Source of the DNA: a virus
Lineage: Duplodnaviria > Heunggongvirae > Uroviricota > Caudoviricetes
DNA length: 64,000 bases
Strand: one strand, 5' to 3'
IMG/VR virus record: IMGVR_UViG_3300033074_000961
The position numbers were made by a program, and so were the translations under genes. Below the pieces are notes generated by a model. That model did no database searches. It worked only from the letters and a program-made list of their open reading frames with translations, and had not been told where the DNA came from. Positions 7,071 through 63,970 of the stretch are shown here, piece by piece (positions within the stretch are counted from its first letter, which is position 1; each line of letters opens with the position of its first letter).

Positions 7071-7077
7071 CGTTGCC

Positions 7078-7138: not shown

Positions 7139-7145
7139 AGCGACA

Positions 7146-19065: not shown

Positions 19066-19296
19066 TCAAGTTCTTTCTGCAACTTCTTCAAGTTGCTCTG
19101 CCGTAAGGGGTTTCCATCCTTCGATTTTTCCAGTGTCGTTGTCAATGGTGAGGCGAACATAGTCACCACCACCAATGCCAAGGTTGCGAGGCACTTCCCC
19201 ATTATATTCAAGTTCTGTCTCAAGGACTTTCATCCCGAAGCAGTCACTACACTTTGCCACGATTCGTATTTTCATATCAGTTTGTTTGTAGGGCAA
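19066..19296 (-). CDS. hypothetical protein
   Basis: 76-aa ORF. Confidence 0.3.
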   Translation of the reverse strand: MPYKQTDMKIRIVAKCSDCFGMKVLETELEYNGEVPRNLGIGGGDYVRLTIDNDTGKIEGWKPLTAEQLEEVAERT

Positions 19297-27438: not shown

Positions 27439-27891
27439 TCAGTCGTAGTTACAGATGGTTAGCTCTATTGGACAATCACCGAAAAGATCACCGATTATTG
27501 CCCTAACTATGTCCCAAGACCCACCGCCAAGGCGACAACCCATGTTCTTGGGCAGTCCGAGACGTTGGACGTTTGCTTGTAGGGCGTGCTCTCTGACTAA
27601 TTCGAGACCCGTATAGAGTGCTTCATAGTTAGTATTGCGCTTCCATCCCCCAAAGTTGAACTGACCATAGACATTGTAGATATATTTATCATCATGTGCC
27701 TTTACCACAGACATCTTACCAAGGCGAGATACATCACCTTTTCGTCCATGTTGAAGGTCTGCCTTATACGCTTCGGGATACTTGGCACGAATGGCAGCGG
27801 CAATGCCAGCTCCCATTGTGTGAAAGCAGTTGCATTGGTGCCCGAACCCGTCAAGCGGGTGTTCTAATAAGTTGGCATCTACTTCAATAAT
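27439..27891 (-). CDS. macrodomain protein (ADP-ribose binding/processing)
   Basis: DGFGHQCNCFHTMGAGIAAAIRAKYPEAY matches the macrodomain nucleotide-binding loop. Internal start MIIEV chosen. Confidence 0.6.
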   Translation of the reverse strand: MIEVDANLLEHPLDGFGHQCNCFHTMGAGIAAAIRAKYPEAYKADLQHGRKGDVSRLGKMSVVKAHDDKYIYNVYGQFNFGGWKRNTNYEALYTGLELVREHALQANVQRLGLPKNMGCRLGGGSWDIVRAIIGDLFGDCPIELTICNYD

Positions 27892-34592: not shown

Positions 34593-35051
34593 TTAGGGGT
34601 GAAGCGGTAAGTCGCCCACCAGCATTTCTCTATCGGGACTATCATCAGCGATGAATAAGTACCCGCAAGTGAGTTCGTTTCTGAACAGAACCCACCGACC
34701 ATCTTCGTTTATGATTGCATCTGCCGTAAACGTGCGGCGGTCAATTAACTGAGCAATTTCTTCGTGGAGGGAATAACCATACTCAGGATCATATACTAAT
34801 CCCGCAGGCCATCCCTTCTTCAATGCTGCCTTGATAACTTCTGCCAGTTGAATTTTGTTGGCAGACAGACAAATCGTTGTACCAAATCCCTTGGCATCAT
34901 GTTGCCATTCTTTCACCCGAGGATGCTTGGGATACTCGAAAGTGAACTGGTTCGCCGCATGTGCGGCGTGTGCCATACCCTTACCGGGATTCAGCGAGGG
35001 CAAGTCATTACGCATCAAAATGTATAGGCGATGATTGGAACGTTTCTTCAT
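34593..35051 (-). CDS. peptidyl-tRNA hydrolase PTH2-family protein
   Basis: LYILMRNDLPSLNPGKGMAHAAHAA parallels the PTH2 VVRxDLxMxxGKxAAQxxHAA motif. Confidence 0.5.
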   Translation of the reverse strand: MKKRSNHRLYILMRNDLPSLNPGKGMAHAAHAANQFTFEYPKHPRVKEWQHDAKGFGTTICLSANKIQLAEVIKAALKKGWPAGLVYDPEYGYSLHEEIAQLIDRRTFTADAIINEDGRWVLFRNELTCGYLFIADDSPDREMLVGDLPLHP

Positions 35052-37707: not shown

Positions 37708-39006
37708 TCATACTGCAATAGGTGCTTTGATAGCGGGGTGAGACTTATAGTCCACCAATTGTATGTCCTCAAACTTGAAATCCATCAGATTGCGGACATT
37801 GGGGTTGATGACTAACTTGGGCAGAATCTTGGGCGTTCTGCTTAGTTGTTCCTTGACTTGTTCCAAATGATTCTCATAGATATGCAAGTCTCCATAGGTA
37901 TGAGTGAATACTCCCGGCACCATATTGACACAATGAGCGATCAATGCAGTCAGTAGGCAATAGGACGTGATATTGAAAGGTACACCGAGGAAGGTGTCAC
38001 AACTGCGTTGGTAGAGCAAGCAATTAAGCCTTCGGCGAGGAACACCTACATTATCCAAATTCTTATGTTGATCTTCTTCCGTTTTACCGAGGTATTTGGG
38101 GAGCAATCCATACTTGCCATTATGATACACTTCGATTCTTTCTGCTATTGACAGAACTTCGGTATGAAAATGAAACATACAATGACATGGAGGTAGAGCA
38201 CAATGGTCAACCCAATAAGGATGCCAAGCACTAACAATTATGCGACGGTCATCGGGATTGGTCTTGAGCTTATCTACAACTTTCTTGAGTTGGTCCACTG
38301 TTCCATATTGGGTAGAGTCTAGTGGGTTATCGGCATTTCGTGGGACATAATAAGGAAATGCTCTCCACATTCCACCATAAGTTCCTTCCCCAAGTTCGCC
38401 CCACTTCTCAGCAAACTTGGCGTCGGTCTTAATGCGGTGAATGAATTCCGCCTGTGTATATTGCTCTGGTTCTGGACCGTGATGATGTTTGGTAAAGTCG
38501 GTAGTGCGTGTTCTTTCCTTGTTATACCAATCAACATATCGTTTATACGCCCATTCATCCCAGATATGAACGTCATTGTCCACAAGGTATTTGATGTTAG
38601 TATCCCCACGGATGAACCACAGCAATTCATGGACGATTGCTTTGAAGAAAATCTTCTTGGTAGTAAGAATAGGGAAGGCATCAAGGTCAATGTCGAACTT
38701 CGCTTGTGCTCCAAAGACCCCAATGGTATCAACCCCTGTACGATTCTTCTTACGTTTCCCTTCACGGAGAATAAGATTCAACAAATCATTGTATTCCGAA
38801 TCTACATGATTGTAAAATTGAATGACTTCTTCACAGGGAAGACATGGATGAACTTCTAGTCCACAGTTTGAACAGAGTTCTCTATCAATCTCTTCCTTTA
38901 CAACTTTGGGTAGAGATTCTTCAACACCCAGCTTTTGTGCAAGAGTCTTGAGCATCGCTTTTTCGTCGTTGGTTAATTCACTCATTTCCAGTACTTGGTT
39001 ATCCAA
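37708..39006 (-). CDS. thyA: thymidylate synthase family enzyme (ThyA / dNMP hydroxymethylase-type) with ~100-aa N-terminal Cys-containing extension
   Basis: FKAIVHELLWFIRGDTN, IVSAWHP, LPPCH active-site motif. N-terminal CSNCG...CLPCEE. Confidence 0.7.
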   Translation of the reverse strand: MDNQVLEMSELTNDEKAMLKTLAQKLGVEESLPKVVKEEIDRELCSNCGLEVHPCLPCEEVIQFYNHVDSEYNDLLNLILREGKRKKNRTGVDTIGVFGAQAKFDIDLDAFPILTTKKIFFKAIVHELLWFIRGDTNIKYLVDNDVHIWDEWAYKRYVDWYNKERTRTTDFTKHHHGPEPEQYTQAEFIHRIKTDAKFAEKWGELGEGTYGGMWRAFPYYVPRNADNPLDSTQYGTVDQLKKVVDKLKTNPDDRRIIVSAWHPYWVDHCALPPCHCMFHFHTEVLSIAERIEVYHNGKYGLLPKYLGKTEEDQHKNLDNVGVPRRRLNCLLYQRSCDTFLGVPFNITSYCLLTALIAHCVNMVPGVFTHTYGDLHIYENHLEQVKEQLSRTPKILPKLVINPNVRNLMDFKFEDIQLVDYKSHPAIKAPIAV

Positions 39007-39455
39007 AAATCCTTCTCTTCCCTAATCGTTTCTGATTTGGGAAACAAATGTTCAAACTCGGGCATGTAAGTATCACCTTCATAGTCACCGAGCACATTCG
39101 TTACATAAAGCTCGCTACATCGAGGAAGCATTGTTGTGTAAGTCTTTGCCCCACCAACAACCCATACCCGAGGCCACGGCACAGTAAGATGCCTTAAATC
39201 ATCGGGACTTACATACCGCCATTTTTCCGATGGCTGTAGTGCTCGTAAATTAGGGTTATTGGTCAAGATGTATGTGAACCTATTGGGAAGTGCTCCTACT
39301 TTCTGAAAGGTAGTCAATCCCATAATTAGGTATCCACCGAGAGTAGGGTCCGTGGTCATCTTTTTGAACCACTTCATGTCTTCGGAGATATGCCAAGGTA
39401 TTTCACCCTTGTATCCGATGACTCTATTTCCAGACATTGCTACGATTGCTTTCAT
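38982..39455 (-). CDS. folA: dihydrofolate reductase
   Basis: IVAMSGNRVIGYKGEIPW, IMGLTTF, WVVGGAKTY. Immediately upstream of thyA, as in T4 frd-td. Confidence 0.75.
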   Translation of the reverse strand: MKAIVAMSGNRVIGYKGEIPWHISEDMKWFKKMTTDPTLGGYLIMGLTTFQKVGALPNRFTYILTNNPNLRALQPSEKWRYVSPDDLRHLTVPWPRVWVVGGAKTYTTMLPRCSELYVTNVLGDYEGDTYMPEFEHLFPKSETIREEKDFWITKYWK

Positions 39456-40243: not shown

Positions 40244-40577
40244 AAGGGATTAGTTTATAGTCATAGTCTTCTATGATATGGGGAGTTTCCCACGAAGACC
40301 ATTCATTACAGGTGACAACTTCATAGATACCATCTTTGCACTCATCAAGGTTGATGATGTTTTTGACTACTTCATCAGCACCAGCATTATGACAATCTTC
40401 ATAGAGAAGATTATATCCTTGGCATTTGCGCCGAAGATAACGGAGGGTTTTCTTGATATGTATTCCACTCCCGTCGTGCCATACCGAAGTTGTAAGTCGG
40501 ACAACACACTTGGGCGGGGGTTCTTTATACTTGGCAACCAAGTCATCAAAGGTTAGTGCTGTGATTTCTTTGCTCAT
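40203..40577 (-). CDS. hypothetical protein
   Basis: 124-aa ORF. Confidence 0.35.
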   Translation of the reverse strand: MSKEITALTFDDLVAKYKEPPPKCVVRLTTSVWHDGSGIHIKKTLRYLRRKCQGYNLLYEDCHNAGADEVVKNIINLDECKDGIYEVVTCNEWSSWETPHIIEDYDYKLIPYEETTPLRPVDGK

Positions 40578-41176
40578 CGGGCAACTACTTTGATGAAGTA
40601 GGTTAGTTCAATCTTCTCACCCACCGTAGAGGATACATCCTTGATAAGTTGACCTATCGTAACCGTATCCTCACGGACAAAGGGTTGATTGAGCAGACAT
40701 ATCTGGTTCACTCGCTTCTGAATTTTTCCTTGAATGATCTTGTCCCGCACCGGAGCAGGTTTGCCCTCCGTCTCACGGATGTATTCACTTGCCCACTTCA
40801 AGCGAACATCCTCTGGAATGGACTCCATAGAGATGTACTCGGGAGCAACAGGAGCAGAGACAATATGCATACAGATATTTTTTGCCAATGTAATGAAGGC
40901 ATCACTCTTGGCAACGAAGTCGGTCTGACATGCAAGCACAATCATTGCGCCAACACGGTTGTTGTGGACGTAAGAGTACACAATCTTGGTGTTGGCAGTG
41001 CGATTCGCCATCTCATTGGCATCTGCTTGCTTCTCGGCAATCAGAATCTTGACCGCTTCCGCCTCATCACCATTCGCTCGTTGAAGAGCTTCGTTGATCT
41101 TATTGATAGGTGAAAAGGTGATAGCACGGATATGCTTTACCTTCTCCACATTGGTCATTGTCTTTTCAACATTCAT
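40574..41176 (-). CDS. tsf: translation elongation factor Ts (EF-Ts)-like protein, short form
   Basis: N-terminal UBA-like VKHIRAITFSPINKINEALQ...AEAVKILIAE, core LACQTDFVAKSDAF (compare EF-Ts CETDFVA+N..F), C-terminal LLNQPFVREDTVTIGQLIKD. Confidence 0.55.
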   Translation of the reverse strand: MNVEKTMTNVEKVKHIRAITFSPINKINEALQRANGDEAEAVKILIAEKQADANEMANRTANTKIVYSYVHNNRVGAMIVLACQTDFVAKSDAFITLAKNICMHIVSAPVAPEYISMESIPEDVRLKWASEYIRETEGKPAPVRDKIIQGKIQKRVNQICLLNQPFVREDTVTIGQLIKDVSSTVGEKIELTYFIKVVAR

Positions 41177-41864: not shown

Positions 41865-42656
41865 TCATTTTGGATATTCAGGTATCATTGCAAGGATTTT
41901 ATCCTTATCTTCGGTAAACTTCCACGCACCCTTGGAAACCCATCTAGTGCGCTCAACGGTGTTGTCTTGAATTTGAGCTTCAAAACTCTCTTTCACAATG
42001 AGACGCCCGTTCTTCTCACCATCGGTGTAATCCGTGGCCCAGTTCTTACCCGCTTGGTGAATCATCTCATGCTTGTCCGAAGTGGACTTGCCGTGAAGCT
42101 CCTTGTGCGAGTACAGGGATTGAGCAACCATTGAGACAGAGTTGCGAGCACAATCTTGATTACGCCAGATGAAGTAGTTCATCACTTCAACTCTGTCAGG
42201 AATGGTGAATACACGGGCATCAAAGAATGCCAGATGCTTTCGCATCCTCGCTTCTTTCAAATCCATTGGCAGTGTTTGAGTAATCTTAAACGCTCTCTCA
42301 AGCCGACATTGATTGAATTCCGCAGTCATGATAGATGCCGCCACAGAACACATTTTCTGTAGGTTGCCGTCAAACCATGCACAAGTACCAATGTCAACGA
42401 AGTCGGTCAAAAGTACACTGATCTCGTCAGATTGGGTATAGGCGAAGACCGCCCCCTGAAGTTCTGGGAGCATCGCAATGATTGCGGCGTCAATGTCCTC
42501 AAAGAGTCCTTTGTCAAAAGGTTTCTCAAGTCCTCGGGTGTACGTATGAAATGCCTTACCATCCAGACGGATGATTGTGTAAGTGCGTCTTGGCAGTAAG
42601 AACCGAGTACGGTCCTCATACTGCCCCTTCATTCTGTCGCCAAGTGCGTCTTGCAT
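41865..42656 (-). CDS. Thg1-like protein (tRNA-His guanylyltransferase / 3'-5' nucleotide polymerase family)
   Basis: RLDGKAFHTYTRGLEKPFD, AYTQSDEISVLL, FFDARVFTIP, NYFIWRNQDCARNSVSM follow the Thg1 family motif pattern. Confidence 0.6.
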   Translation of the reverse strand: MQDALGDRMKGQYEDRTRFLLPRRTYTIIRLDGKAFHTYTRGLEKPFDKGLFEDIDAAIIAMLPELQGAVFAYTQSDEISVLLTDFVDIGTCAWFDGNLQKMCSVAASIMTAEFNQCRLERAFKITQTLPMDLKEARMRKHLAFFDARVFTIPDRVEVMNYFIWRNQDCARNSVSMVAQSLYSHKELHGKSTSDKHEMIHQAGKNWATDYTDGEKNGRLIVKESFEAQIQDNTVERTRWVSKGAWKFTEDKDKILAMIPEYPK

Positions 42657-46185: not shown

Positions 46186-47193
46186 TTACTTTCCAGCGAT
46201 GGGTTTCATGCCCGAACGATGGCGTCCGAACACCTTTTTACGCAACTCCACAATTGTATCACAAAGGTCTTCCTTGCCATACTGCGGACGGGAGTTCACG
46301 TCTCGTGCAATCAATCGCTTAATGAATGCACACATTTCTTCGGGTACATCTTTAGGCACCATCTTACGCTCAACGTATTCTGGACCACCCGATAAAGCAT
46401 AAATCATCGTCATTCCAAGACTGTAATAGTCAGACTCGGGAATGAGGGGTTTGCCAGCTATTTCTTCGGGAGGGGCAAAGTAAGGAGTGAACCCCTTTGC
46501 TTCGGCAGAACCCGTGGGTTTCACCATTGACAAACCGAAGTCCACCAGAACTGCCATGTGCCTATCCTCTTGCACGATGATATTCTGGGGTTTCAAATCG
46601 CCATGCACCACGCCATGACGATGAATGTAATTAAGAGCATTGAGGATTCTTTCAGTAATCCACGCAACGGTTTCTGGTTCCATTGCTCCTACTCGTTTCA
46701 CTTCTTTCTCAAGAGTGAGACCGGGAATGTAGCTCATGACGAGCAGTACCCGTCCATCTTCCAACTTATACAAATCCCTCATGGCGGGGAGAGCGTAGTG
46801 TCTCAAATCCCACAACACTCGGCACTCTTGAACAAGCATATCCACATCATCCAAAGAGACGTTAGAGCAGTCTTTGATACAGACCAATTCTTTGAGAATG
46901 GAATGCTCTGCTTTGTAGGTGCGACCAAACCCGCCTTCGGCAATAACAGATTGAACTTTGTAAGGTCCAATTATCTTGGTAGTGCCTTCGATACGTTCAC
47001 GGTCAAAATCACGACGCTTACGGGGGTCGGTAAGAATGTCATGTGCTTCGTTGAGGGAACGGGCATGAGACCCCACAGTGGCATGGTCTAAATCAGGATG
47101 ATGTTCCTTCATTAGTGCCCGATATGCCGCCTCAATCACTGAGGGACTTGCTTTCGGGTGGACTTGGAGGACTTGATACCAGTCGTTTTTCAT
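46186..47193 (-). CDS. J-domain (DnaJ) – Ser/Thr protein kinase fusion
   Basis: N-terminus DWYQVLQV...MKEHHPD (J domain with HPD). Kinase HRHGVVHGDLKPQNII, DFG, APE-like PPE. Confidence 0.65.
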   Translation of the reverse strand: MKNDWYQVLQVHPKASPSVIEAAYRALMKEHHPDLDHATVGSHARSLNEAHDILTDPRKRRDFDRERIEGTTKIIGPYKVQSVIAEGGFGRTYKAEHSILKELVCIKDCSNVSLDDVDMLVQECRVLWDLRHYALPAMRDLYKLEDGRVLLVMSYIPGLTLEKEVKRVGAMEPETVAWITERILNALNYIHRHGVVHGDLKPQNIIVQEDRHMAVLVDFGLSMVKPTGSAEAKGFTPYFAPPEEIAGKPLIPESDYYSLGMTMIYALSGGPEYVERKMVPKDVPEEMCAFIKRLIARDVNSRPQYGKEDLCDTIVELRKKVFGRHRSGMKPIAGK

Positions 47194-49645: not shown

Positions 49646-50324
49646 AGGGGAATTGAAAGTTGTGTCTCAGTTTATGTTTCCGCATGGGTGTCACCAACTG
49701 ATACTTTTCTCCCTCGCCCCGTTCGAGTACCAATATCTCACAGTTCTTAGGATTACCCCACGATTCAAATTCTTCCACCGAGCAATGAAACCATCGCATA
49801 ATGAATAGGCGCATGGTCATTCCATGAGTGACAATCACACAATTGCGAGGAAAGTCTTTCTTCTGAAAGTCCCGATGCATTGTATTCATGAAGTCGCTTA
49901 CACGGTCAAATACATCCGCACAGGATTCACCACCATCACGAAAACGATAGTAAAAGTGTCCGTAGCTATCCCGATATTCCTCAACCTTCTCCTTGTATCC
50001 TTCCCGAGATTCCATATTCTGTCCCCACTCTTGCTCACGAAGGCGAGGGTCTTCGTAATAACGATACAAATCTGGGTCTGGAATAGGGAATGATTTGCGG
50101 ATACCGGCATAGGTCTGACGAGTACGCCAGAAGGGAGAAACGTAGAACTGAATGGACTCGTGTGGTTGAATGTAAGTCTTGAGAGACAATCCTGCACTTT
50201 CTGCTTGCTGTTCGCCCAAGGGAGTAAGTTGAAGAGCGTAGTCGGGGGTTGTAGCGTATGCTTCTTTGTCGGCATTACCCACAGACTGTCCGTGCCGGAC
50301 GAGGAATATCTTATCGGGTTTCAT
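49578..50324 (-). CDS. histidine-phosphatase superfamily (phosphoglycerate-mutase-like) protein
   Basis: LVRHGQSVGN (RHG motif); HG later in sequence. Confidence 0.55.
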   Translation of the reverse strand: MKPDKIFLVRHGQSVGNADKEAYATTPDYALQLTPLGEQQAESAGLSLKTYIQPHESIQFYVSPFWRTRQTYAGIRKSFPIPDPDLYRYYEDPRLREQEWGQNMESREGYKEKVEEYRDSYGHFYYRFRDGGESCADVFDRVSDFMNTMHRDFQKKDFPRNCVIVTHGMTMRLFIMRWFHCSVEEFESWGNPKNCEILVLERGEGEKYQLVTPMRKHKLRHNFQFPFDNYDADFFPYPYEIPYESEPR

Positions 50325-50628
50325 TATCCAAATAGTTGACTATCGTTTGTAAGTGGCATCGGAGTGACTTACATTTTGGATTGCCGCAATGTGGTTCGCA
50401 CCGACACCAGCAACCAAGTTTCTTTCCTTTTAACGCTAACACTTTAGCATGAAATTCGGGATCACGCAACTTTTTATAGAAGTGCTCCGCAAATTTTTCA
50501 CATGCTTCATCCCGAGTGATACCGAGGCGATTGTGGTCGAAGGGATTACCAAATGGAGAACCACGCCCACAATAAACTTCCGCCTTGTGATGGCGAAGGT
50601 TTACTATGGACGTGGTTTTCTCACTCAC
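50311..50628 (-). CDS. small Cys/His-rich protein (GNPF...CWC...CH; DUF4326-like)
   Basis: YCGRGSPFGNPF...GCWCRCEPHCG. Confidence 0.35.
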   Translation of the reverse strand: MSEKTTSIVNLRHHKAEVYCGRGSPFGNPFDHNRLGITRDEACEKFAEHFYKKLRDPEFHAKVLALKGKKLGCWCRCEPHCGNPKCKSLRCHLQTIVNYLDNETR

Positions 50629-50920
50629 GTTGTTCTGATGCCTTACGCCGTCACCTTGCGAATCTGGATGCGGGACTTCAAGATGTAATTCTTGAGCCAG
50701 CTCACATCACCACGCAAAGGTTGACGGTTCAGACTGTAATTGGTGAAGGAAAGACCCGCATAGGGACCAGTCCAACGACCATTGGAACGATAGAACAAAC
50801 CGAACCGAGGTTTCGTTGATTTTGCCATAACTGTGTTTCTGTTGCGCCCCAACTATAGGGGCAGTTGTAGTTTCAGCGAGTAGATTACCACACTTTTAGA
50901 TTGTTGTCAAGTACGAAAAA

Positions 50921-50945
50921 ACCCCGCCCGAAGGCGGGGTCTGAA
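50921..50945 (-). terminator. rho-independent terminator
   Basis: accccgccttcgggcggggTTTTTT on the minus strand, directly after the stop of gene 50958..52514. Confidence 0.65.
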
Positions 50946-50957
50946 TTCGTATGGTTA

Positions 50958-52514
50958 TTACACCACAACACGGTCGTAACGAGGATTGTTCACCGTCTCG
51001 TAAACGATGTCCATAGGACTGAAGCTCTTCGCTGAGAGCAGCGACTTCAAGATGCTTGGTGAGCATCCCGAGACAAGGGCAGTGCCATTGTCGTCCGCAC
51101 GGATTGGGAAGTTATCGTTGCGGGAGGCAACGTTCCACCACACGATGCGAGGCAGCGTGTATCCATGCTTCTCGTACTTCTCACGGATGACTTGGAAGTT
51201 GGTCTTGCTGTTGCAACCCGAGGCTGCATCAAACTCCATGTCGGAGACCACATAGAGAACGCTTGGCATATCCTTTGCCGCAACACGGTTCTGCACCGCA
51301 GTACGGAGGATAAGGTCAAACGCAGACTGGAGATTCGTGGACTGAGCCCAGTTGGACTTGTCCATGTTATCCCACTTCTCAAGCAAGGTTTGTCCAACCA
51401 ACTTTTGGAAGGTTGGCGAGCTGGAGAAGTTCATCCAGAAGTCCTTGAAAGGACCAACGTTACGCTCTGCGAAGTAAATCGCAAGCGAGACCGACACGAG
51501 AATTGGCAGCATGTCATGGGTGAACATGGAGCCAGACACGTCGGCAATAACAATACCATAGTGCTCGTTACCTTCCAGCCAGTTTGGCATGGACTTCCAT
51601 TGCAGGTCTGCCTGCTTTGCGCTCATGGCGTCTGGACGACCATGCATGACGATGGAACGCAGGATTTCGTATGGGAATACGGCACCGGCATTCATCTTCT
51701 TCTCGCCCTTCTCAACGGACTTGAGATAGGCAGCGTAACGCTCCTGATCGTGCTTACCGAACGCCTTGCGGTAGTTCAGCGAAGCCTTGGAAGGAACGTG
51801 CTCGAAGTCAATCTTGGCCCAGTCGCCAGCGCACATCTTGACTTCAAGTACATCAATGTGCTTACGCAGCGCAGAGAGAATCTTGCGGTAACGCTTTGGA
51901 GTCAGTTCAAGAGCCTCACGGGTCTTGCGAGCAAGACGACGGGACTCCGCAGAACTGGTGTTCTCGGACTTGAGCCACTTGGCAAGCAGCGAGACGGACT
52001 CGCCCTTCTTCATGTTCTTGAGGTCTGCCTTCAACTGGGTAGCGAAAAGGGCATAGACTTCCGACTCAAGTGGGGTTCCCACGAGAGCATAGAGGTCATC
52101 ATAGCGTCCGAAGAACGCCACGTTCTCAAGGTTCTTGCGAGCAACGTCGGTGTAGTTCTGGGCGAGCCAGTTCACCAACGTACGGAAGGTCTTACGCTCT
52201 CCCTGTCCCTCACGTACGTCACGGAGGTAGAACAGAATCTTGGTAGCCAAGAGACGGTCCTGTGCAAATGCACGGGAGAAAAGATTGATTACGTCCTGCT
52301 CGGCACGAGAGCGGATTGCTCCACCAGCACCGAAGAAGTCGAGGACATAGTTGAGCGTGCTCTTGTTGGTCAGAGCACCCTTCTCGGTATAACCGAGATT
52401 TCCCTGATTCTGCATAGCAGACAGGAATGGGTTCTGTGAGAGCACAGTGGTTTGAGGCACAAACTGAGTTGAGCGGGTCTTACGAGTCACGTTCTTCATA
52501 ACGGTTCCTTTCAT
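50958..52514 (-). CDS. TROVE-like N-terminal domain + C-terminal vWA protein (Ro60/Rsr-like or DUF2828-type)
   Basis: C-terminal MIDAS IVIADVSGSM. N-terminal GYTEKGALTNKST...LDFF and REGQGERKTFRTLVNWL resemble TROVE motifs. Confidence 0.45.
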   Translation of the reverse strand: MKGTVMKNVTRKTRSTQFVPQTTVLSQNPFLSAMQNQGNLGYTEKGALTNKSTLNYVLDFFGAGGAIRSRAEQDVINLFSRAFAQDRLLATKILFYLRDVREGQGERKTFRTLVNWLAQNYTDVARKNLENVAFFGRYDDLYALVGTPLESEVYALFATQLKADLKNMKKGESVSLLAKWLKSENTSSAESRRLARKTREALELTPKRYRKILSALRKHIDVLEVKMCAGDWAKIDFEHVPSKASLNYRKAFGKHDQERYAAYLKSVEKGEKKMNAGAVFPYEILRSIVMHGRPDAMSAKQADLQWKSMPNWLEGNEHYGIVIADVSGSMFTHDMLPILVSVSLAIYFAERNVGPFKDFWMNFSSSPTFQKLVGQTLLEKWDNMDKSNWAQSTNLQSAFDLILRTAVQNRVAAKDMPSVLYVVSDMEFDAASGCNSKTNFQVIREKYEKHGYTLPRIVWWNVASRNDNFPIRADDNGTALVSGCSPSILKSLLSAKSFSPMDIVYETVNNPRYDRVVV

Positions 52515-53599: not shown

Positions 53600-54385
53600 T
53601 TATTTTTTCGTTTTTCTTTGAGAGTATGGTTTGTCCACATTATGCAAGTTCTGTTCTGCACACACCCGCTCGACATCATTCGAAATTGATTGAAGTCTCT
53701 GCTTTGCTAATTCGACATAAGTATCGTTAACTTCAATGCCCACGTAGTTATGGTCCATTGCTGCCGCAGCAACAAGAGTGGTGCCGATACCGCAGTAAGG
53801 GTCAAGCACGTTCAATCCTCTGCGTTCATCGGCAATGCTGTAAATACAACGCACTGGTAATTCAATAGGAAATGGTGCGGGATGTTCCTTGAATCCACTC
53901 TCGGGGCGGATACGCCAAATGGAAGTCATCTTGGCATGTCTGCTTTCCAGTTCATCACCTTTGGTCAATCCCTTTTGCATCCAATAGATTCTTTCTTCAA
54001 CTTGCCAGAATCTCCATCCTCTTACGTTGCCAGCAATGATTCTATCCCAAATGAGTTCTTGGCGAATGCCCCACATGGTTTTGTTCAACCAATCCAACGG
54101 ATGAATCATCTTACCATCTTGCCAACGGAGTTTGTGGTTGTAGAAGATATGCCCTCCCGGCTTGGTGACTCTCCACAACTGGTCCAACACTTGCACTTGC
54201 TGCTTCTGATACTCTTCTTCGGGCATGTTATCAGAGTGAACACCATATTCAACTTTGCCCACCAACTCCCCCGATACTTTCTGCTTATTGTATGGCGGCG
54301 AGGTAACGGTGATGTCAAAAAAGTCATCCTCAAACTGCCGCAGTACAGTAACAGCATCCCCAACGTAAATCTTGTTGTTATCCAT
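53600..54385 (-). CDS. DNA methyltransferase, β-class amino-MTase (SPPY motif IV before FxGxG motif I); N4-C or N6-A
   Basis: VTSPPY then DPYCGIGTT. Confidence 0.65.
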   Translation of the reverse strand: MDNNKIYVGDAVTVLRQFEDDFFDITVTSPPYNKQKVSGELVGKVEYGVHSDNMPEEEYQKQQVQVLDQLWRVTKPGGHIFYNHKLRWQDGKMIHPLDWLNKTMWGIRQELIWDRIIAGNVRGWRFWQVEERIYWMQKGLTKGDELESRHAKMTSIWRIRPESGFKEHPAPFPIELPVRCIYSIADERRGLNVLDPYCGIGTTLVAAAAMDHNYVGIEVNDTYVELAKQRLQSISNDVERVCAEQNLHNVDKPYSQRKTKK

Positions 54386-54454
54386 TATGACCCAAATTTT
54401 ATACTACAATGAGGCAAACGTCAACTTATAATAAGTTGACCTATCATATGTTAT

Positions 54455-55276
54455 GTGGCATACTCGTGGGCGATGATACAATTGTTCAACGAGGACTTCC
54501 TCAAGGCAGATTTTACTTCCATCCCACCAATCAATTTGGTGGTAACGTCCCCGCCGTACAATGTAGGCATTGAATATGACAAGCATGACGACACAATGAC
54601 CTATGAGGAATATCTTGTTTGGTGCAAAAAGTGGATTGCTAAGCTTTATTCATTGATGGCGGATGACAGTCGTATCTGCATAAACATTCCATTCTCCATT
54701 ACACCGATTCACTTGAATAAAGTCAAGGGTGCCGAGGACATCAACTACCCCGTATCAGCAGACTACACCGAAATCTGTCAGGAAGTAGGATTCAAATACT
54801 ATCGTAATGTCATATGGCAGAAGTTAGGAAGCAATAAGACGTGTTGGGGAAGTTGGCGGTCTGCCCGTGCTCCTTTCATCATTGACCCCAACGAGTGTAT
54901 CCTTATCTTTTACAAGGGGAATTGGAAGCGAAAAGAAAAGGGCAAGTCCACCATTCGTGGTCGTGAATTCATGACTTATGTAAAGAATCTGTGGCACATG
55001 CATCCCGAGACACAATCCAAGCATCCCGCAGCCTTTCCGTTGGAACTACCGAATAGGTGTATCAAACTTCTATCCTATGAAGGAGACCTTGTGTGTGACC
55101 CATTCTTAGGGTCTGGCACAACAGGCGATGCCGCAGTCAGATTGAAGAGAAGTTTTGTAGGTGTGGAGAAGAGCGAAGAGTATTTCAAAATGGCAAAAGA
55201 AAGGATTGATACAGCAGAAATTCAAACTTCTTTGATTGCATCAATCATGCCAGATGGTGACGAAGATGATGATTGA
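54455..55276 (+). CDS. DNA methyltransferase, β-class amino-MTase (second SPPY enzyme)
   Basis: VTSPPYNVG then CDPFLGSGTT. Confidence 0.65.
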   Translation: MAYSWAMIQLFNEDFLKADFTSIPPINLVVTSPPYNVGIEYDKHDDTMTYEEYLVWCKKWIAKLYSLMADDSRICINIPFSITPIHLNKVKGAEDINYPVSADYTEICQEVGFKYYRNVIWQKLGSNKTCWGSWRSARAPFIIDPNECILIFYKGNWKRKEKGKSTIRGREFMTYVKNLWHMHPETQSKHPAAFPLELPNRCIKLLSYEGDLVCDPFLGSGTTGDAAVRLKRSFVGVEKSEEYFKMAKERIDTAEIQTSLIASIMPDGDEDDD

Positions 55277-56336
55277 ACCAAATCTGTTCTACGAGAAAGG
55301 ACTGATTCATGCCAGAGGACACCACGATCCTGTCGGAAAGTGTTTGACCTTGTTGGCAGGTTCGCAGGGCGTTGTTTGCTCTAATCCACGAAGCGTTTTC
55401 TTCGGATGTCCCGAAATTCAAAAGGAATACGAACGAAATATCCTCAACAGTACGGCGAGTGCTGGTAATGATACTCAGTACTATCTTCAAAAAGACGTAA
55501 AGTGTTATGCCACTGATAACCGAGATGAACTTGATGTTGCGGCATCTCTTATTGCGGGTGCATTGATGAAGGGCGATACGTTGTGGAGAAATAAGGACGG
55601 AATGAGTATGAGGCAAATTCGTTCTACTCTACTCATCGAAGCTCCTGTTGAAAATTCAGATGAAGATATTCAACGATTCAATGCCGCAGCAACTCGGGCA
55701 TTTAACATACTTTCGGCAGACCGAGATGGAATGATTGACATTTTATCGAAGGCATGGCACTTCAAACAAATTCTTGGCACTAAGAACGAAGACCGATTCA
55801 TTATTCCCCGACAAGTGGACCACGGGATTGCTAAACTTTTCAACCTTCTCTGTGAAGAGGAAGAAGCATATGACCTTTCCATCCCTACAGATGGATATAC
55901 AATTTCTGACAAGATGGCAAACGACCTGTTCCACCAAAGCACGAGTAAAAAAGTCAGAAGTGGTATCATCAAGGACAATCTTCAAATGTCCAATACTCGT
56001 TCAGGTCAATCCAGCAACAATCACCAACGTCCACGGTTCGATTGCTTGCTTGCCATGCAGTACATCCCCTATTTGGTATGTGGAATTGTGCCCTACCACA
56101 AAATTGTATCACATTTCCGTCATACCGATGGGGGATGGGTATTGAAGAGAGTTCCCATAGACCATTTCCAATACATTCTCTCTCCCACCGAAACAATTCC
56201 TCCCCAAGACATCTCCCCCGACGATAAAGCGGAGATGGAAAACTTTGCACAACTAGTTAAGGGAGAGTTTTTTCCGAAACTCCTTGACAAACGACCAAAA
56301 AAAGCGGATACTACGCCGCAAATTGAAGTATGGTGA
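55263..56336 (+). CDS. hypothetical protein between methyltransferase genes
   Basis: 366-aa ORF. Start trimmed to the Met past the upstream stop. Confidence 0.4.
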   Translation, partial: KMMIEPNLFYEKGLIHARGHHDPVGKCLTLLAGSQGVVCSNPRSVFFGCPEIQKEYERNILNSTASAGNDTQYYLQKDVKCYATDNRDELDVAASLIAGALMKGDTLWRNKDGMSMRQIRSTLLIEAPVENSDEDIQRFNAAATRAFNILSADRDGMIDILSKAWHFKQILGTKNEDRFIIPRQVDHGIAKLFNLLCEEEEAYDLSIPTDGYTISDKMANDLFHQSTSKKVRSGIIKDNLQMSNTRSGQSSNNHQRPRFDCLLAMQYIPYLVCGIVPYHKIVSHFRHTDGGWVLKRVPIDHFQYILSPTETIPPQDISPDDKAEMENFAQLVKGEFFPKLLDKRPKKADTTPQIEVW

Positions 56337-57274
56337 AACCGAAGACGAAACTTACTCCTGTCCGCTACCCCGGCGGCAAGTCCAACGCTTTGAAGTTCTT
56401 GGACAAGCACCTACTGCGTTCATTTTCCACCTACCGTGAACCATTCTTTGGTGGTGGGTCTGTCGGTCTCTACCTGATGCAGTTCAACAAGGATGCAGTC
56501 TATTGGGTCAACGACTTGTTCTATCCCGTGTACTGTTTCTGGAAGGTTCTCTACGAGCGTCCCGATGAAATGGTGAAGTATCTCCTTGCTCGTCATGAGA
56601 CGTATTCCAAACCGCAAAGCGGGATTGCTGGACAAGACATAAAGGTAAAAGGAGTGCCTACCAAGGCTGCCGAAGCTGCTCGGGCACTACATGCATTCTG
56701 CCGCCAGCAAATTCAAATCAATATCGAACAGAAGGACGAGTTTCATACCGCTTGCCATTGGTATATCCTCAACAAGACTTCATACTCAGGTATGGCAATG
56801 ATTGGTTCATATGCGCCTCTTGCATGGGACCAGAACTTCACCATCAATTGCATCAACAATCTTCCCAAGACCACCGCACTTATGCGGAGCGTAAAGGAAG
56901 TTCGCATTACCAATTTGGATTATGCCGACATGCTGAAACCCGATGGCGACCACGACGAGAATACGTTTGTATTTCTCGACCCGCCCTACAAAATCCCCCA
57001 CAGTCTCTACGGGGATGGTGGAGACATGCATGAAGGATTTGACCATCGCCGTTTCTATGAGGAAGTCATCAAGTGTCCAACTCGCTGGTTGATTACCTAT
57101 AACAAAGACCCTGAAATTGACGCATGGTTCTTAGGATACCATAAACTCCCGTGGGAACTTCAGTACACCATGAAGGCGGCAAAGCGTGAGGGGCAAGAAG
57201 GGTCTGCCAAAACTGGCAAATCAGGTAAGAAGGGACGAGAGTTATTGATAGCAAACTATCCGCTTACAGCCTGA
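56330..57274 (+). CDS. dam: Dam-type (α-class, D12) DNA N6-adenine methyltransferase
   Basis: YPGGK, EPFFGGGSV (motif I), FLDPPY (motif IV). Confidence 0.7.
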   Translation: MVKPKTKLTPVRYPGGKSNALKFLDKHLLRSFSTYREPFFGGGSVGLYLMQFNKDAVYWVNDLFYPVYCFWKVLYERPDEMVKYLLARHETYSKPQSGIAGQDIKVKGVPTKAAEAARALHAFCRQQIQINIEQKDEFHTACHWYILNKTSYSGMAMIGSYAPLAWDQNFTINCINNLPKTTALMRSVKEVRITNLDYADMLKPDGDHDENTFVFLDPPYKIPHSLYGDGGDMHEGFDHRRFYEEVIKCPTRWLITYNKDPEIDAWFLGYHKLPWELQYTMKAAKREGQEGSAKTGKSGKKGRELLIANYPLTA

Positions 57275-58379: not shown

Positions 58380-58408
58380 TTGACAAACCCCAAGTACTCT
58401 GTTATATT
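58380..58408 (+). promoter_or_regulatory. σ70 promoter TTGACA-N17-TATATT
   Basis: acTTGACAaaccccaagtactctgtTATATTtg, 25 nt upstream of the ATG at 58434. Confidence 0.45.
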
Positions 58409-59377: not shown

Positions 59378-59409
59378 TCTTGACTTTTTTTAATCGTGTG
59401 GTAAGATGT
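59378..59409 (+). promoter_or_regulatory. σ70 promoter (TTGACT-N16-TGgTAAGAT), 9 nt before the ATG
   Basis: ctcTTGACTtttttTAATcgtgTGgTAAGATgtcagcaatATG. Confidence 0.45.
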
Positions 59410-59416: not shown

Positions 59417-59620
59417 ATGGCAGAACCAACACGTAAAAGTTACTCGCTTCGCCAAGCAATCAATGCTTTCGCAGGCGTAGATACCGAGCAATCCATCCGC
59501 AACGACACTTGTACCATGTGTCGGAAACCCGCACTTGCCTTCAAAGATGAACTAAGCAAGAAAGAGTTCACCATCAGCGGCATGTGCCAAGAGTGCCAAG
59601 ACAAAGTTTTTGGCTCTTGA
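59417..59620 (+). CDS. small zinc-ribbon protein
   Basis: CTMCRK...CQECQD. Confidence 0.4.
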   Translation: MAEPTRKSYSLRQAINAFAGVDTEQSIRNDTCTMCRKPALAFKDELSKKEFTISGMCQECQDKVFGS

Positions 59621-59655
59621 CAACTGACGATAAAACGCTAAACTCAAGCACAATT

Positions 59656-60918
59656 ATGGCAACTCTAATCAAAGAAGTAAAGCTGATCATGACCGAGGTT
59701 GGCACCAACAACAACAAGTGGTGGACCGGACAGCTTTTTGACGATGGCACAGTCAAAGCGACTTGGGGACGTGTCGGATACTCTGGTGACTCGGGTGAAT
59801 GGCAGGGTGGACAATCGTATTTGGATAAGAAAGTCAAGGAGAAGATCAAGAAGGGTTATACTGAGTTGAAGACTGTTGGTAACGCTGGTATTGCGCCGTC
59901 CAGTTCTGCTCCCGTTCGCAATGCAGACCTTCACCAGATTGCCAAAACTCAACTTATCAAATCTTCCAACCCGACGCTGGAACGTTTGATTAAGCGTTTC
60001 GTTGAAGCAAACGTCCACAAGATTACTCGTGACACGCAAATCACCTACAATTCATCAACGGGTTTGTTTGCCACGCCTCTCGGTATTGTCACGATGGAAG
60101 GTTTGACCGATGCTCGTGACTTGCTCGCCAAACTTGCTCCTATCGTTCGTGGTCGTCGCTTCGGGTCCGAAGCAGATGCTCTTTTGAGTAAGTATCTTCG
60201 TCTCATTCCTCAACATTTGGGTATGGGGCGATTCTCTTGCCAGTCGGTTATCCCCGACGACAATGCTTTGCAGAAGCAGAGCGACTTGATTGACTCTTTG
60301 GAGTCGTCCTATCAAGCAATGTCCACGCAACCGGCTCAAGCGGGTCAACCCGTCAAGAAGCAGGAAACCGTGTTCCAAGTGGACTTGGACGTACTCACCG
60401 ACCAATCCGAGCGCAATCGTTTGGAACGTTATTTTGAAACGTCCAAGAAACGTATGCACGGGTATGACAACGTGCGAGTGAAGGAAATCTTCGCCGTCAA
60501 TGTCCACGATATGACTCGTGGGTTTGAAAACAGCACCACTCCCATTAAAGAAGTGTTCCACGGCACTTCCCAAGCAAACTGCCTCTCCATTCTCAAGAGT
60601 GGACTCAAGGTGTCGCCTCCGTCCACTGCTGCCATCGCTGGCAAGATGTTCGGCAACGGCATCTATGGCGCAATCAACTCCACCAAGAGCCTTGGTTATA
60701 CTTTCAACCGTTGGGGTCAAGGTGGAGTGGGCGATGCGGGATGGCTCTTCATCTGTCAGTTCGCAATGGGCAAGATTTACGAGACTCGGCACAGCTGCTC
60801 TCCGCAACGGGGTTACGACTCTGTATGGGCGAAGGCTGGCGGCAGTCTGGCGAATGATGAATTGATCGTCTATCGCAATACCCAAGTCAAAATCACTCAC
60901 CTTTTGGAGTGCAAATAA
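59656..60918 (+). CDS. WGR domain – PARP-like catalytic domain ADP-ribosyltransferase
   Basis: N-terminus ATWGRVGYSG (WGR). C-terminus VFHGTSQANCLSILKSGLKV...GKMFGNGIYGA...NDELIVY parallels the PARP1 H-G-S / Y / E catalytic core (LLWHGSR...GYMFGKGIYFA...YNEYIVYD). Confidence 0.65.
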   Translation: MATLIKEVKLIMTEVGTNNNKWWTGQLFDDGTVKATWGRVGYSGDSGEWQGGQSYLDKKVKEKIKKGYTELKTVGNAGIAPSSSAPVRNADLHQIAKTQLIKSSNPTLERLIKRFVEANVHKITRDTQITYNSSTGLFATPLGIVTMEGLTDARDLLAKLAPIVRGRRFGSEADALLSKYLRLIPQHLGMGRFSCQSVIPDDNALQKQSDLIDSLESSYQAMSTQPAQAGQPVKKQETVFQVDLDVLTDQSERNRLERYFETSKKRMHGYDNVRVKEIFAVNVHDMTRGFENSTTPIKEVFHGTSQANCLSILKSGLKVSPPSTAAIAGKMFGNGIYGAINSTKSLGYTFNRWGQGGVGDAGWLFICQFAMGKIYETRHSCSPQRGYDSVWAKAGGSLANDELIVYRNTQVKITHLLECK

Positions 60919-61193: not shown

Positions 61194-61598
61194 ATGGGAC
61201 GTTGCATAATTCAACTTGATGGTAAGCTAATGCATTGGACTTCGGTTAGTGATGGTCCGTGCTCTCTCTTGCTCACCGAAGAACAGTTTCGCCGCTATTG
61301 GCGAGAAGAGTTTGGTCGTGACCGATGGCCTGAACTTGCCGAGCTTCTTCTGACCGTCAAGGCGAAGGGTACTACTGCCCGAGGATATACGGTTGACGAC
61401 ATTATTAAAGAAAACCGTGCTGGTGAAAAGGGTAAGAAACTCACCAAGGCACAAATCATTGAAGCATACACTCCCACCGATGCCGAATTTGAAGAATGGT
61501 GTAAGAACCGAGACAAATTCGCCGAAGACCAGTACAAGGAATGGGAGGAAGTGTGGACAGAAAGATTCTCCCCGAAGAAAGAGAAAAAAGGGAGTTGA
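61194..61598 (+). CDS. hypothetical charged protein
   Basis: Internal start MGRCIIQ of ORF 61158..61598. Confidence 0.35.
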   Translation: MGRCIIQLDGKLMHWTSVSDGPCSLLLTEEQFRRYWREEFGRDRWPELAELLLTVKAKGTTARGYTVDDIIKENRAGEKGKKLTKAQIIEAYTPTDAEFEEWCKNRDKFAEDQYKEWEEVWTERFSPKKEKKGS

Positions 61599-61677
61599 CA
61601 TTTTCCACGGGTGATGTATAATAACCCCGTAACGTTGGAAAACAACAAACGACAACAACAAAATCAAATAGAACCAT

Positions 61678-62298
61678 ATGTGCAATCAAGCAAATGTTCC
61701 GTCCGTAACGCTCCAGACCGCCGTGCTCATGCAGGTGAAGGAGTTTGCCCAAAACTCTCAGCCGTTCAGCGTCCATGATGTGACCCGCAACCTTCGGATG
61801 AAGACCTCCCAAGGGGAGATCGAGATTCCCGAAGTGGAAGTGCAGGGTGCGTCTTTCCGTTTTGACATCCCCCACGTCAAGGTGAAGGGCATCTTTGACG
61901 AACTGTGGCGTACTGGTGTCTTTGACCCCGTGTTGACCCTCAACCGTACCTTCAACGGCACGTATTTTGAGTACACCCCGTCTCTCGTCGCTGGTGCTGC
62001 TCCTTCTGTGACCGTTACCGCTCCCCCCGTGACTCCGACTCAGACCGTGAGTACGCCGTCTGCCTCCCCGACTTCCGGTCCCGTGTCCGACTCGGTAGTT
62101 CAGAGCCGCATCCAGACCTATCTGGACAACTGCCAGTCCCGTAACTTCCGCCCGACCCTCAAACAGGTTCAGTCTGCCATCAAGCGTGACGTGAGCACTG
62201 GTTGGTCCTGTGAAAAGATTCAGGACTACATCGAAGGTCTCGGTTACTCCGTGGTTGCCGACCCCGATTACGTGTCTGCCTCACAAGTGGCACTGTAA
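61678..62298 (+). CDS. hypothetical protein with Pro/Thr/Val-rich linker
   Basis: 206-aa ORF. Confidence 0.45.
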   Translation: MCNQANVPSVTLQTAVLMQVKEFAQNSQPFSVHDVTRNLRMKTSQGEIEIPEVEVQGASFRFDIPHVKVKGIFDELWRTGVFDPVLTLNRTFNGTYFEYTPSLVAGAAPSVTVTAPPVTPTQTVSTPSASPTSGPVSDSVVQSRIQTYLDNCQSRNFRPTLKQVQSAIKRDVSTGWSCEKIQDYIEGLGYSVVADPDYVSASQVAL

Positions 62299-62477
62299 TG
62301 CCCGACTTGCCCGACATTGTGGTTCATCTTCCGGCAGAGCATTTCGATGCTCTGTCGGAAGTTATCTTTTCGGGACTTCAACGGGCAAACATTGACCCTA
62401 AGACCCGCAACGAGCTTCGGGATTGGTGGACCGCCGAAAAGGAATTCATAGAAGACGAAATAAAGGGACAAGCGTGA
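62298..62477 (+). CDS. small hypothetical protein (59 aa, below the ORF-track cutoff)
   Basis: Manual translation MPDLPDIVVHLPAEHFDALSEVIFSGLQRANIDPKTRNELRDWWTAEKEFIEDEIKGQA. TAATG and GTGA couplings on either side. Confidence 0.3.
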   Translation: MPDLPDIVVHLPAEHFDALSEVIFSGLQRANIDPKTRNELRDWWTAEKEFIEDEIKGQA

Positions 62478-63415
62478 GCGAGATTGTTATTGTAATGGGA
62501 TTCCCCGCCTCGGGGAAGAGTACGACGGTTGACCAATTTGTTAAACAAGGGTACACCCGCTTCAATCGTGATGCTGCTGGCGGCACAATGGAAGGTTTAC
62601 ATAATGCCGTTGACCAATACCTTCAGAAGTGCAACGACAATGTAGTACTTGATAATCTTTATCCTTCGGTGGAAAGTCGCAAGGCAATCATCGCCATCGC
62701 CAAGAAGCACAAGGCAACCATTCGGTGTGCCATGATGGGTACAAGCATGGAAGATTCTATGCTGAATGCCTGTCTCCGCATGATGCAGAAGCATGGATGT
62801 ATCCCCGACCCCAAAGATTTTGGACGAGTGGCAGACCCTAACACCTTCCCCGTAGCAGTTATCTACAAGTATCGGAAAGAGTTTCAACAACCGACCACAA
62901 AGGAGGGATTCGGTTCTGTCCAAGTAGTGCCGTTTGTTCGCACTTGGGGACCAGATTACATCAACAAAGCCATCCTTGTGGACTATGATGGCACTCTCCG
63001 ACTCAGCACGGGTAAACAGAAGTTCCCTATTCTTAAAGGGGATATAAAGATGATGCCGGGAAGGAAGGAAGTCCTACAACGGTACAAGGACCAAGGGTAT
63101 CTTATTTTGGGCGTAAGTAATCAATCAGGTGTCGCCAAGGGGCAGATTACCTTCGCTGAGTGCAAGCAACGATTTGTTGATACCAATGAAATGCTTGGGA
63201 AGGGTATCGTGGACGAATTCTCGTTCTGCCCTCACAAAGTCCCACCCATTTCATGCTACTGCCGCAAACCCAATGTTGGAATAAGTGCTTTTTACATTTA
63301 TCAACACAAGCTTCGACCTTCGGAATGTATCATGGTTGGCGATATGGGGAGCGATAAAACATTCGCTCATAGAAGTGGGTTTAAGTTTGTTCATGCCGAC
63401 GAATTTTTCAAATAA
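62474..63415 (+). CDS. pnk: polynucleotide 5'-kinase / 3'-phosphatase (T4 Pnk-like)
   Basis: N-terminal P-loop IVIVMGFPASGKST, C-terminal HAD phosphatase ILVDYDGTL ... GDMGSDK. GTG start 62474 preferred (P-loop near the N-terminus as in T4 Pnk). The ORF track gives ATG 62423. Confidence 0.65.
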   Translation: MSEIVIVMGFPASGKSTTVDQFVKQGYTRFNRDAAGGTMEGLHNAVDQYLQKCNDNVVLDNLYPSVESRKAIIAIAKKHKATIRCAMMGTSMEDSMLNACLRMMQKHGCIPDPKDFGRVADPNTFPVAVIYKYRKEFQQPTTKEGFGSVQVVPFVRTWGPDYINKAILVDYDGTLRLSTGKQKFPILKGDIKMMPGRKEVLQRYKDQGYLILGVSNQSGVAKGQITFAECKQRFVDTNEMLGKGIVDEFSFCPHKVPPISCYCRKPNVGISAFYIYQHKLRPSECIMVGDMGSDKTFAHRSGFKFVHADEFFK

Positions 63416-63424: not shown

Positions 63425-63970
63425 TTGGTCGAAATCCAATCTATTTATTGGAATACGGCAAAATATCATATGAAACGATGTAATAGATGTTTAGTTGAGA
63501 AGGAGGACTCGCAGTTTGAAGTTGGGCAAAATAAGTGTATTCCCTGTCATACTAAACGACGTGATTACTATCTCGAAAATCGTTCACAAGAAATCGCCCG
63601 AGCAAAAAAACACGCTAATAAAGATAGAAATCATACAAATGAACTAAAGCGAAAAAATTTGCGAAAAAATCCTGTCAGTTACATTTTATGGAGAACTAAA
63701 TCAAAATGTAAGAAAGAAAGCATTCCATTTGATTTAACTCATGCTGATATTATTGTTCCGTCTCATTGTCCAATTCTCGGAATTCCATTGATTATAGGAG
63801 ACACCAATTCACAAGATGGTTCTCCATCAATAGATCGCAAAGATCCCAAACTTGGATATGTAAGAGGAAACATTCAAATCATTTCTCATAAAGCAAATAC
63901 AATCAAGAGCGATGCTACAATCTTAGAAATTGAGAAAGTTTGGAGATATATGAAACAAATGCTCGGGTAG
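63425..63970 (+). mobile_element. free-standing HNH endonuclease
   Basis: CNRC...CIPCH zinc finger plus PSIDRKDPKLGYVRGNIQIISHKAN. Confidence 0.6.

Follow-up and report, generated by a model that had tools for sequence, protein, structure and literature searches.

The bacterial enzymes HaPARP of Herpetosiphon aurantiacus (47 kDa) and CdPARP of Clostridioides difficile CD160 are DNA-dependent, modify themselves and are sensitive to inhibitors of PARP1 (PMC5966428). PARP genes are also known from bacteriophages. Perina et al. (2014; PMC4245714) reported them in Aeromonas phage Aeh1 and Cellulophaga phage phi4:1 and noted conservation of the catalytic triad, Iyer et al. (2021; PMC7824862) described PARPs of jumbo phages, citing BBA65562.1 of phage XacN1, and suggested that they act in the manner of the ADP-ribosyltransferases (ARTs) of phage T4, with chain formation possible, and Li et al. 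(2024, Microbiome; PMC11662467) described ‘NAD-jumbo phages’ in which a whole salvage or Preiss-Handler route to NAD+ is encoded along with NAD+-consuming enzymes, PARP among them. Here we analyse a 64,000-nucleotide stretch of phage DNA (IMG/VR record IMGVR_UViG_3300033074_000961; hereafter the window) and the 420-residue PARP that it encodes at 59656-60918. A sequence-only reading of the window had considered a PARP-family enzyme with its own NAD+ supply to be unusual in a T4-like phage; in view of the three reports above this was overstated, and the window's PARP is a good further example of something already in the literature. The interest of the family lies in the question of what a bacterial virus does with a eukaryote-style, break-sensing ART. 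The best explanation of the whole, and one that we consider probable, is that the phage PARP is an early-expressed ART that would be activated by nucleic-acid breaks and fed by NAD+ made by the phage.

The PARP open reading frame (ORF) and its promoter candidate are laid out as follows.

59656-60918, + strand: 420-residue protein with WGR, helical regulatory and ART (PARP) domains; the coordinates take in the stop codon
59656-59880, + strand: WGR domain, residues 1-75, with NNNK at 18-21, WGRVG at 37-41 and KKGY at 65-68
59926-60324, + strand: helical (PARP_reg-like) domain, residues 91-223, from Pfam, AlphaFold2 (AF2), profile and Foldseek evidence
60373-60915, + strand: ART catalytic domain, residues 240-420, with H302-G303, M331, Y337, K344, S345, Y348 and E402
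59617-59644, + strand: sigma70-like promoter match, TTGACA-16-TAAACT, its 3' end 12 nt from the PARP ATG (weak evidence, being a match to the consensus only)

The Pfam PARP catalytic model (PF00644; cut-off 26.7 bits) scored 81 bits over residues 252-393 (E=1.1e-22). The WGR model (PF05406) matched residues 10-71 marginally above its cut-off (22.3 against 22.0 bits), and the PARP_reg model (PF02877) matched residues 139-217 slightly below its own (25.6 against 26.8 bits); precomputed WGR and PF02877 matches are present in many homologues. PHROG 23333 (‘polymerase’) covers the full length of the protein (E=1.3e-45). These matches, and those of the context genes described below, are not due to chance. 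The sequence-only reading had picked out a WGR motif and a C-terminal segment resembling the PARP1 catalytic core, and both are present: WGRVG is encoded at 59764-59778, HGT (residues 302-304) at 60559-60567, GNGIYGA occupies residues 333-339 and NDELIVY residues 400-406, and the triad H302/Y337/E402 aligns with H862/Y896/E988 of PARP1 and with the equivalent residues of PARP2. Neither of the outcomes that the sequence-only reading had named as fatal to it, a missing PARP/WGR match or a missing triad, was observed. Judged from its sequence, the ORF is a PARP clade-1-type enzyme with the minimal, PARP2/3-like arrangement of WGR, helical and ART domains and an intact active site.

The same assignment was obtained from more sensitive comparisons. 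A single-sequence search of PDB sequences found the catalytic domain of PARP1 (E=5e-14) and the stretch of PARP2 from the WGR to the catalytic domain (residues 7-377, E=1e-13), and a profile built from 18 close homologues matched human PARP2 from the WGR through the catalytic domain (residues 7-381 and 394-419, E=1.3e-25), aligning without a break across the helical domain of PARP1/2. In the family profile E402, within the motif LANDELIVY, is aligned to the catalytic glutamate of PARP2 in LNYNEYIVY. The D-loop, PPSTAAIAGKMFGNGIY, aligns closely with that of PARP1, APPEAPVTGYMFGKGIY, and the equivalents of PARP1 K903, S904 and Y907 are conserved. The PARP2 WGR motifs NNNKY, WGRVG and KK..(Y/W) are shared by the phage WGR domain in the profile alignment. 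An AF2 model computed from a 59-sequence alignment had a mean pLDDT (predicted local distance difference test) score of 82.1 that was low only in the two inter-domain linkers; the WGR domain scored 85-94, and residues 91-223 formed six predicted helices. When this model was compared with the PDB using Foldseek, its best matches were PARP2/HPF1 and the PARP1 WGR-catalytic fragment bound to DNA double-strand breaks (E=2.5e-24, template modelling (TM) score of about 0.57 for a multi-domain chain), while the helical region matched chains containing the helical domain and ART together, among them that of PARP4 with a target-normalised TM score of 0.75.

Conservation was counted over 151 sequences, the query and 150 representatives of clusters formed at 50% identity. 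The triad is almost invariant (H302 in 148, Y337 in 148 and E402 in 147, with one Asp and gaps accounting for most of the other exceptions), as are G303 (147/151), K344 (148/151) and Y348 (148/151). N18, K21, G38, R39 and Y68 of the WGR domain are likewise conserved, with G38 kept in 138 and R39 in 135 of the sequences, and position 37 is usually aromatic. The phage PARP is therefore apparently catalytically competent as far as alignment can tell. We regard the domain architecture, the fold, and the conservation of NAD+-site and catalytic residues across a large family as established for this protein.

Comparison with characterised enzymes places the phage PARP close to HaPARP and CdPARP, with which it shares layout, similar size and the H-Y-E triad; those enzymes are paired with a PARG (DUF2263), whereas no PARG was found among the window ORFs scanned. 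Human PARP2 and PARP3 gave the best full-length profile and structural match and have WGR motifs in common with it, but the phage protein is only about 20% identical to them, lacks their N-terminal tail, has a shorter segment ahead of the catalytic glutamate and has no HPF1. Previously recorded phage PARPs (PHROG 23333; XacN1, Xoo-sp13, 05F01/FBKp34, CM1/RAS14 and phi4:1/phi17:2) have the same architecture at 24-32% identity and 96-99% coverage, and homologues from cultured phages are already named poly(ADP-ribose) polymerase in GenBank.

A longer PARP ORF beginning at a GTG at 59584 is possible. We favour ATG 59656 because nearly all homologues are about 420 residues long, and because the promoter match at 59617-59644 falls within the GTG extension. 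No Shine-Dalgarno sequence is visible ahead of this ATG. In all, four consecutive genes on the + strand, PARP and three neighbours, have a sigma70-like match immediately ahead of them (58380-58408, 59380-59407, 59617-59644 and 61595-61622, all +), agreeing with the consensus at 9 to 12 of 12 positions. The placement of these matches suggests that transcripts of the PARP region are early and, with a promoter 12 nt from the ATG and no visible Shine-Dalgarno sequence, possibly near-leaderless.

The family is large. A collection of 5.8 billion sequences contains 887 relatives of the PARP at E<1e-5, the best 120 of which are all at least 65% identical, about 420 residues long and carried on contigs of up to 364 kb; a search of cluster representatives returned 2,676 at E<=0.001, and 346 at the stricter E<=1e-30, with lengths almost always of 405-455 residues. 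Among 50,697 deposited phage records, by comparison, only 19 contain a full-length homologue, the best of them 32% identical. These carriers include Klebsiella phages 05F01, FBKp34 and KP13-16, Xanthomonas phages XacN1 and Xoo-sp13, Stenotrophomonas phages CM1 and RAS14, Cellulophaga phages phi4:1 and phi17:2, and two huge uncultured phages. The ART domain alone was matched in 50 deposited phage records, including that of Aeromonas phage Aeh1, a T4-like phage. The window's PARP thus stands in a separate clade known only from metagenomes, with 120 or more clusters that are at least 65% identical, and proteins of cultured phages are at most 32% identical to it. Abundant in metagenomes, strongly conserved and carried by phages that rebuild NAD+, this clade suggests heavy use of the cofactor.

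The source of the window is probably a large uncultured phage of a jumbo-phage lineage. The protein identical to the PARP ORF is carried by a single contig, of 94.6 kb, and the contigs of its relatives reach 364-401 kb. A search for near-identical DNA of the PARP region in the 50,697 phage records found nothing; the phage is uncultured and distant from known phages. The label ‘T4-like’ is unproven for it: the rIIA protein in the window, the only marker compared, shares no more than 29% identity with its counterpart in any cultured phage, and structural genes are absent from the 64 kb. Motifs of the close family were looked for in 185,579 representative bacterial and archaeal species genomes; no close relative was found, and so there was no clue to a host or prophage. 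A scan of viral contigs with the close-family alignment returned eight loci. Remoter members of the family, at 30-38% identity, come partly from phage-like contigs and partly from bacterial chromosomal surroundings. One distant bacterial member (32% identity), on Logan contig SRR8820263 at 1053-7921, adjoins an MksB/MksE/MksF condensin-like operon, and another (locus L016) has a NADAR gene 3 kb downstream.

In the window, small ORFs of no recognised function flank PARP on the + strand, and three larger genes follow it.

61678-62298, + strand: 206-residue protein with two predicted winged-helix domains and a disordered, variable linker rich in P, T and A
62423-63415, + strand: polynucleotide kinase / 3'-phosphatase (PNKP), a P-loop kinase and a HAD phosphatase (PNK3P E=1.1e-7, AAA_33 E=1.1e-6)
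63425-63970, + strand: HNH/EndoVII-like endonuclease

The PNKP gene starts 1.5 kb downstream of PARP. The tandem winged-helix protein matched neither Pfam nor PHROG, and its gene follows PARP, with orientation unchanged, at all seven related loci (PARP 52-82% identical). A PNKP homologue is found near PARP at four of the seven (L001, L006, L010 and L013). At L010, a 365-kb IMG/VR contig with a PARP 53% identical to that of the window, one strand carries PncB, PNKP, Prs, YopX, an OGFr_N-domain protein, PARP and the winged-helix protein in turn. The OGFr_N protein there (7138-7686; opioid growth factor receptor conserved region) sits with YopX between Prs and PARP. Further afield, the huge phage LR756500.1 (PARP 24% identical) encodes macrodomain, PARP, PncB and NadM proteins within 30 kb of one strand; in LR756511.1 a 529-residue PARP-like gene is directly followed by an ATP-dependent DNA ligase and, two genes from PARP, there is a protein with an N-terminal domain resembling the winged-helix neighbour (hhalign probability 82%, E=1e-5); in Cellulophaga phage phi4:1 PARP has a CCA-adding enzyme on one side and, on the other, a DNA ligase at a distance of two genes; and in Klebsiella phage 05F01 a macrodomain homologue lies 5 kb, and a phosphoribosyltransferase 1.1 kb, upstream of PARP. 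Just upstream of the window's PARP cluster stand three DNA methyltransferase genes in a row (53600-57274; two N6_N4_Mtase and one D12-class, Dam-like), an arrangement also present at L001, L006, L007 and L009.

The sequence-only reading had also placed a macrodomain protein, the Nudix half of NadM and a set of NAD+ salvage genes in the same genome as PARP, and Pfam or PDB matches were obtained for all of them, weakly so for PncA.

2724-3686, - strand: Prs, ribose-phosphate pyrophosphokinase
9691-10470, - strand: NadE, NAD synthetase
10678-11874, - strand: PncB, nicotinate phosphoribosyltransferase
17119-17997, - strand: PncA-like nicotinamidase, weak (Isochorismatase 21.6 bits, below cut-off; PDB nicotinamidases E=7e-5 to 1e-4)
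18015-18944, - strand: NadM-like nicotinamide mononucleotide (NMN) adenylyltransferase / Nudix ADP-ribose pyrophosphatase (Nudix Pfam match; PDB NMN adenylyltransferase/Nudix 2qjo, E=4.6e-12)
20633-21097, - strand: an extra small phosphoribosyltransferase
27439-27891, - strand: macrodomain protein, TARG1/SCO6735-like (Pfam Macro E=1.2e-8; PDB 5e3b, SCO6735, E=4.5e-8; TARG1 4j5r, E=9.5e-8)

By Pfam, PDB and PHROG scans the window contains a full Preiss-Handler route from nicotinamide (the weak PncA-like protein, PncB, NadM and NadE) as well as Prs. The pairing of PARP with a complete NAD+ route is that of the NAD-jumbo phages (PMC11662467), which by definition exceed 200 kb; the window covers 64 kb. 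PncB is rare among deposited phages (13 of the 50,697 records), and the 13 include two of the 19 PARP carriers. NARP1 is an NAD+-reconstitution pathway that uses the enzymes Adps and Namat. That Prs and PncB might be such an Adps/Namat pair seemed to us the less probable reading, given a distance of 7 kb between the two genes, a nicotinate phosphoribosyltransferase with a PncB-type PF17767 N-terminus, and the presence of NadE, which fits the deamidated Preiss-Handler route. A scan for ADP-ribose-related families covered about 83 window ORFs, some small ORFs being left out, and found no PARG, ARH, NADAR, SIR2, Tpt1, Alt/Mod-type or second ART among them. Since the DNA ligase of the window is ATP-dependent, PARP is the only NAD+-consuming enzyme identified among the scanned ORFs, which mildly favours a supply link.

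We propose that PARP would be transcribed early from its own sigma70-like promoter, as its context indicates. By homology with human PARP2/3, HaPARP and CdPARP, its WGR domain would bind a nucleic-acid break and relieve autoinhibition by the helical domain, and the activated enzyme would ADP-ribosylate itself and nearby proteins, probably with short or long chains. The surrounding genes suggest that its work in the infected cell would be at DNA or RNA ends, together with PNKP and the tandem winged-helix protein, and that the phage's own Preiss-Handler pathway would supply it with NAD+. The TARG1-like macrodomain may trim back what PARP adds, without being a dedicated partner. In Li et al. (PMC11662467) phage PARP is seen as sensing DNA damage in the service of phage DNA repair; a macrodomain eraser is not discussed there.

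Several points weigh against this proposal. We infer break activation, the targets, the mono or poly nature of the product and any macrodomain coupling, and no report of phage PARP biochemistry was found in the literature. The segment between residue 381 and the catalytic glutamate, which corresponds to the acceptor-loop region of PARP1/2, is about 35 residues shorter than in PARP2 (from aligned position 381 to 394 the phage profile has 13 residues and PARP2 has 48), and it is short family-wide, at 25-30 residues in the 151-sequence alignment. The position of PARP1 Y986 is occupied by Asn400, as seen by manual comparison with the PARP1 motif rather than in a tool alignment. Although H-Y-E is present in human PARP3 and PARP4, their product is mono-ADP-ribose only; the triad is thus no warrant for chain synthesis, and the choice between mono and poly is not readable from sequence. 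Gene-neighbour links are suggestive but few, anecdotal, phylogenetically non-independent and biased towards very large genomes, which confound them, and neither XacN1 nor 05F01 has a ligase or PNKP within 6 kb of PARP. The promoter matches come from a scan for the consensus in which enrichment was modest (11 sites against 6.6 +/- 2.4 expected).

The sequence-only reading had joined these genes into a self-contained cycle, and a dedicated, co-evolved version of it would have PARP as writer, the macrodomain as eraser, NadM-Nudix and Prs as the recycling arm and PncA, PncB, NadM and NadE as the route of resynthesis. All of these components are in the window, and some are linked in distant relatives (PncB-PNKP-Prs-PARP at L010; macrodomain, PARP, PncB and NadM in LR756500.1; macrodomain and phosphoribosyltransferase in 05F01), so that this much of the claim stands. 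The macrodomain cannot be counted as a dedicated partner, however, because its homologues occur in 2,945 of the 50,697 phage records, about 150 times more than the 19 with full-length PARP. Macrodomains of the TARG1/SCO6735 class act on mono- or terminal ADP-ribose, or on thymidine-linked ADP-ribose on DNA, and not on poly(ADP-ribose) chains; that of the window is of this class rather than the PARG class, and no PARG or ARH match was found among the scanned ORFs, whereas HaPARP and CdPARP are paired with PARG. The genes are also dispersed over 57 kb and both strands, with the macrodomain 32 kb and the NAD+ genes 41-57 kb from PARP on the opposite strand. Both arms have independent roles on offer, since phage ADP-ribosylhydrolases are demonstrated counter-defences against DarT toxins (PMC11825919) and countering NAD+ depletion has been proposed for phage NAD+ synthesis (Li et al., 2024; PMC11662467). 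A dedicated closed cycle consequently appears unlikely to us.

We are similarly doubtful that the enzyme is a constitutive or protein-activated ART for host takeover, which would mono-ADP-ribosylate host RNA polymerase or translation factors and use its WGR domain for localisation only. The model here is T4, whose Alt, ModA and ModB are likewise NAD+-dependent phage ARTs used during infection. Those enzymes belong to the R-S-E clade of ARTs and have neither a WGR nor a helical regulatory domain, whereas PARP belongs to the H-Y-E (diphtheria-toxin/PARP) clade. A T4-like role for jumbo-phage PARPs is what Iyer et al. (2021; PMC7824862) propose, and the early-type promoter context, the shortened acceptor-loop region, which is compatible with mono activity, and the window's wealth of translation and RNA genes (EF-Ts, Thg1, PTH2 and an aminoacyl-tRNA synthetase (aaRS)-like ORF) would all suit it. 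Set against this, the phage PARP retains a full WGR domain and a helical autoinhibitory domain with strongly conserved DNA-contact motifs, a conservation that argues for allosteric control by nucleic acid, and the characterised bacterial homologues are DNA-dependent (PMC5966428). Distinctly improbable, in our estimation, is a nucleic-acid end modifier that ADP-ribosylates the 5'- or 3'-phosphorylated DNA or RNA termini made by PNKP, as PARP3 and TRPT1 do in vitro; that ends so modified would be capped against host nucleases or marked for phage ligases, with the TARG1-like macrodomain reversing the mark, we likewise consider a long shot. PNKP, DNA ligase, RNA ligase and CCA-adding enzyme genes recur near PARP, a macrodomain of the TARG1 class is present, and the NADAR gene near the distant L016 member points the same way, but this evidence is purely contextual, jumbo phages cluster genes of nucleic-acid metabolism anyway, and no adjacency is conserved across all PARP phages. 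Rather improbable, too, is the broader idea that PARP, the tandem winged-helix protein, PNKP and ligases form a phage module for break signalling or end modification, or that PARP itself attaches ADP-ribose to phosphorylated DNA or RNA termini, with phage NAD+ as the supply and the macrodomain as the eraser; if true, such a module would be the viral equivalent of the PARP-PNKP-ligase pathway by which eukaryotes deal with single-strand breaks. The break-activated, phage-fed ART set out above remains our preferred account, and with a well-characterised example, a conserved neighbour in the tandem winged-helix protein and cultured carrier phages as test subjects, the family is a reasonable experimental target.

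Other genes of the window are noted here in their own right. Genes for RNA metabolism and translation are unusually concentrated on the - strand (4546-5777, 19277-19942, 34593-35051, 40574-41176, 41865-42656 and 50311-52514); the set comprises an RNA ligase, a SpoU methylase, a class II aaRS-like fragment, the PTH2 peptidyl-tRNA hydrolase, EF-Ts, the Thg1 tRNA-His guanylyltransferase, a TROVE-like DUF2828/DUF7788 protein and a DUF4326 protein. No tRNA genes were found in the 64-kb window. A Ser/Thr protein kinase with a fused N-terminal DnaJ (J) domain (46186-47193, - strand) and a separate PP2C phosphatase (13922-14701, - strand) could be a phage-encoded writer and eraser pair for phosphorylation. 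The thymidylate-synthase homologue at 37708-39006 (- strand), which adjoins a DHFR gene (38982-39455), is 432 residues long against about 266 for the Pfam model, with an N-terminal extension and an internal insertion, and may be an enzyme for a modified pyrimidine, of the hydroxymethylase type.

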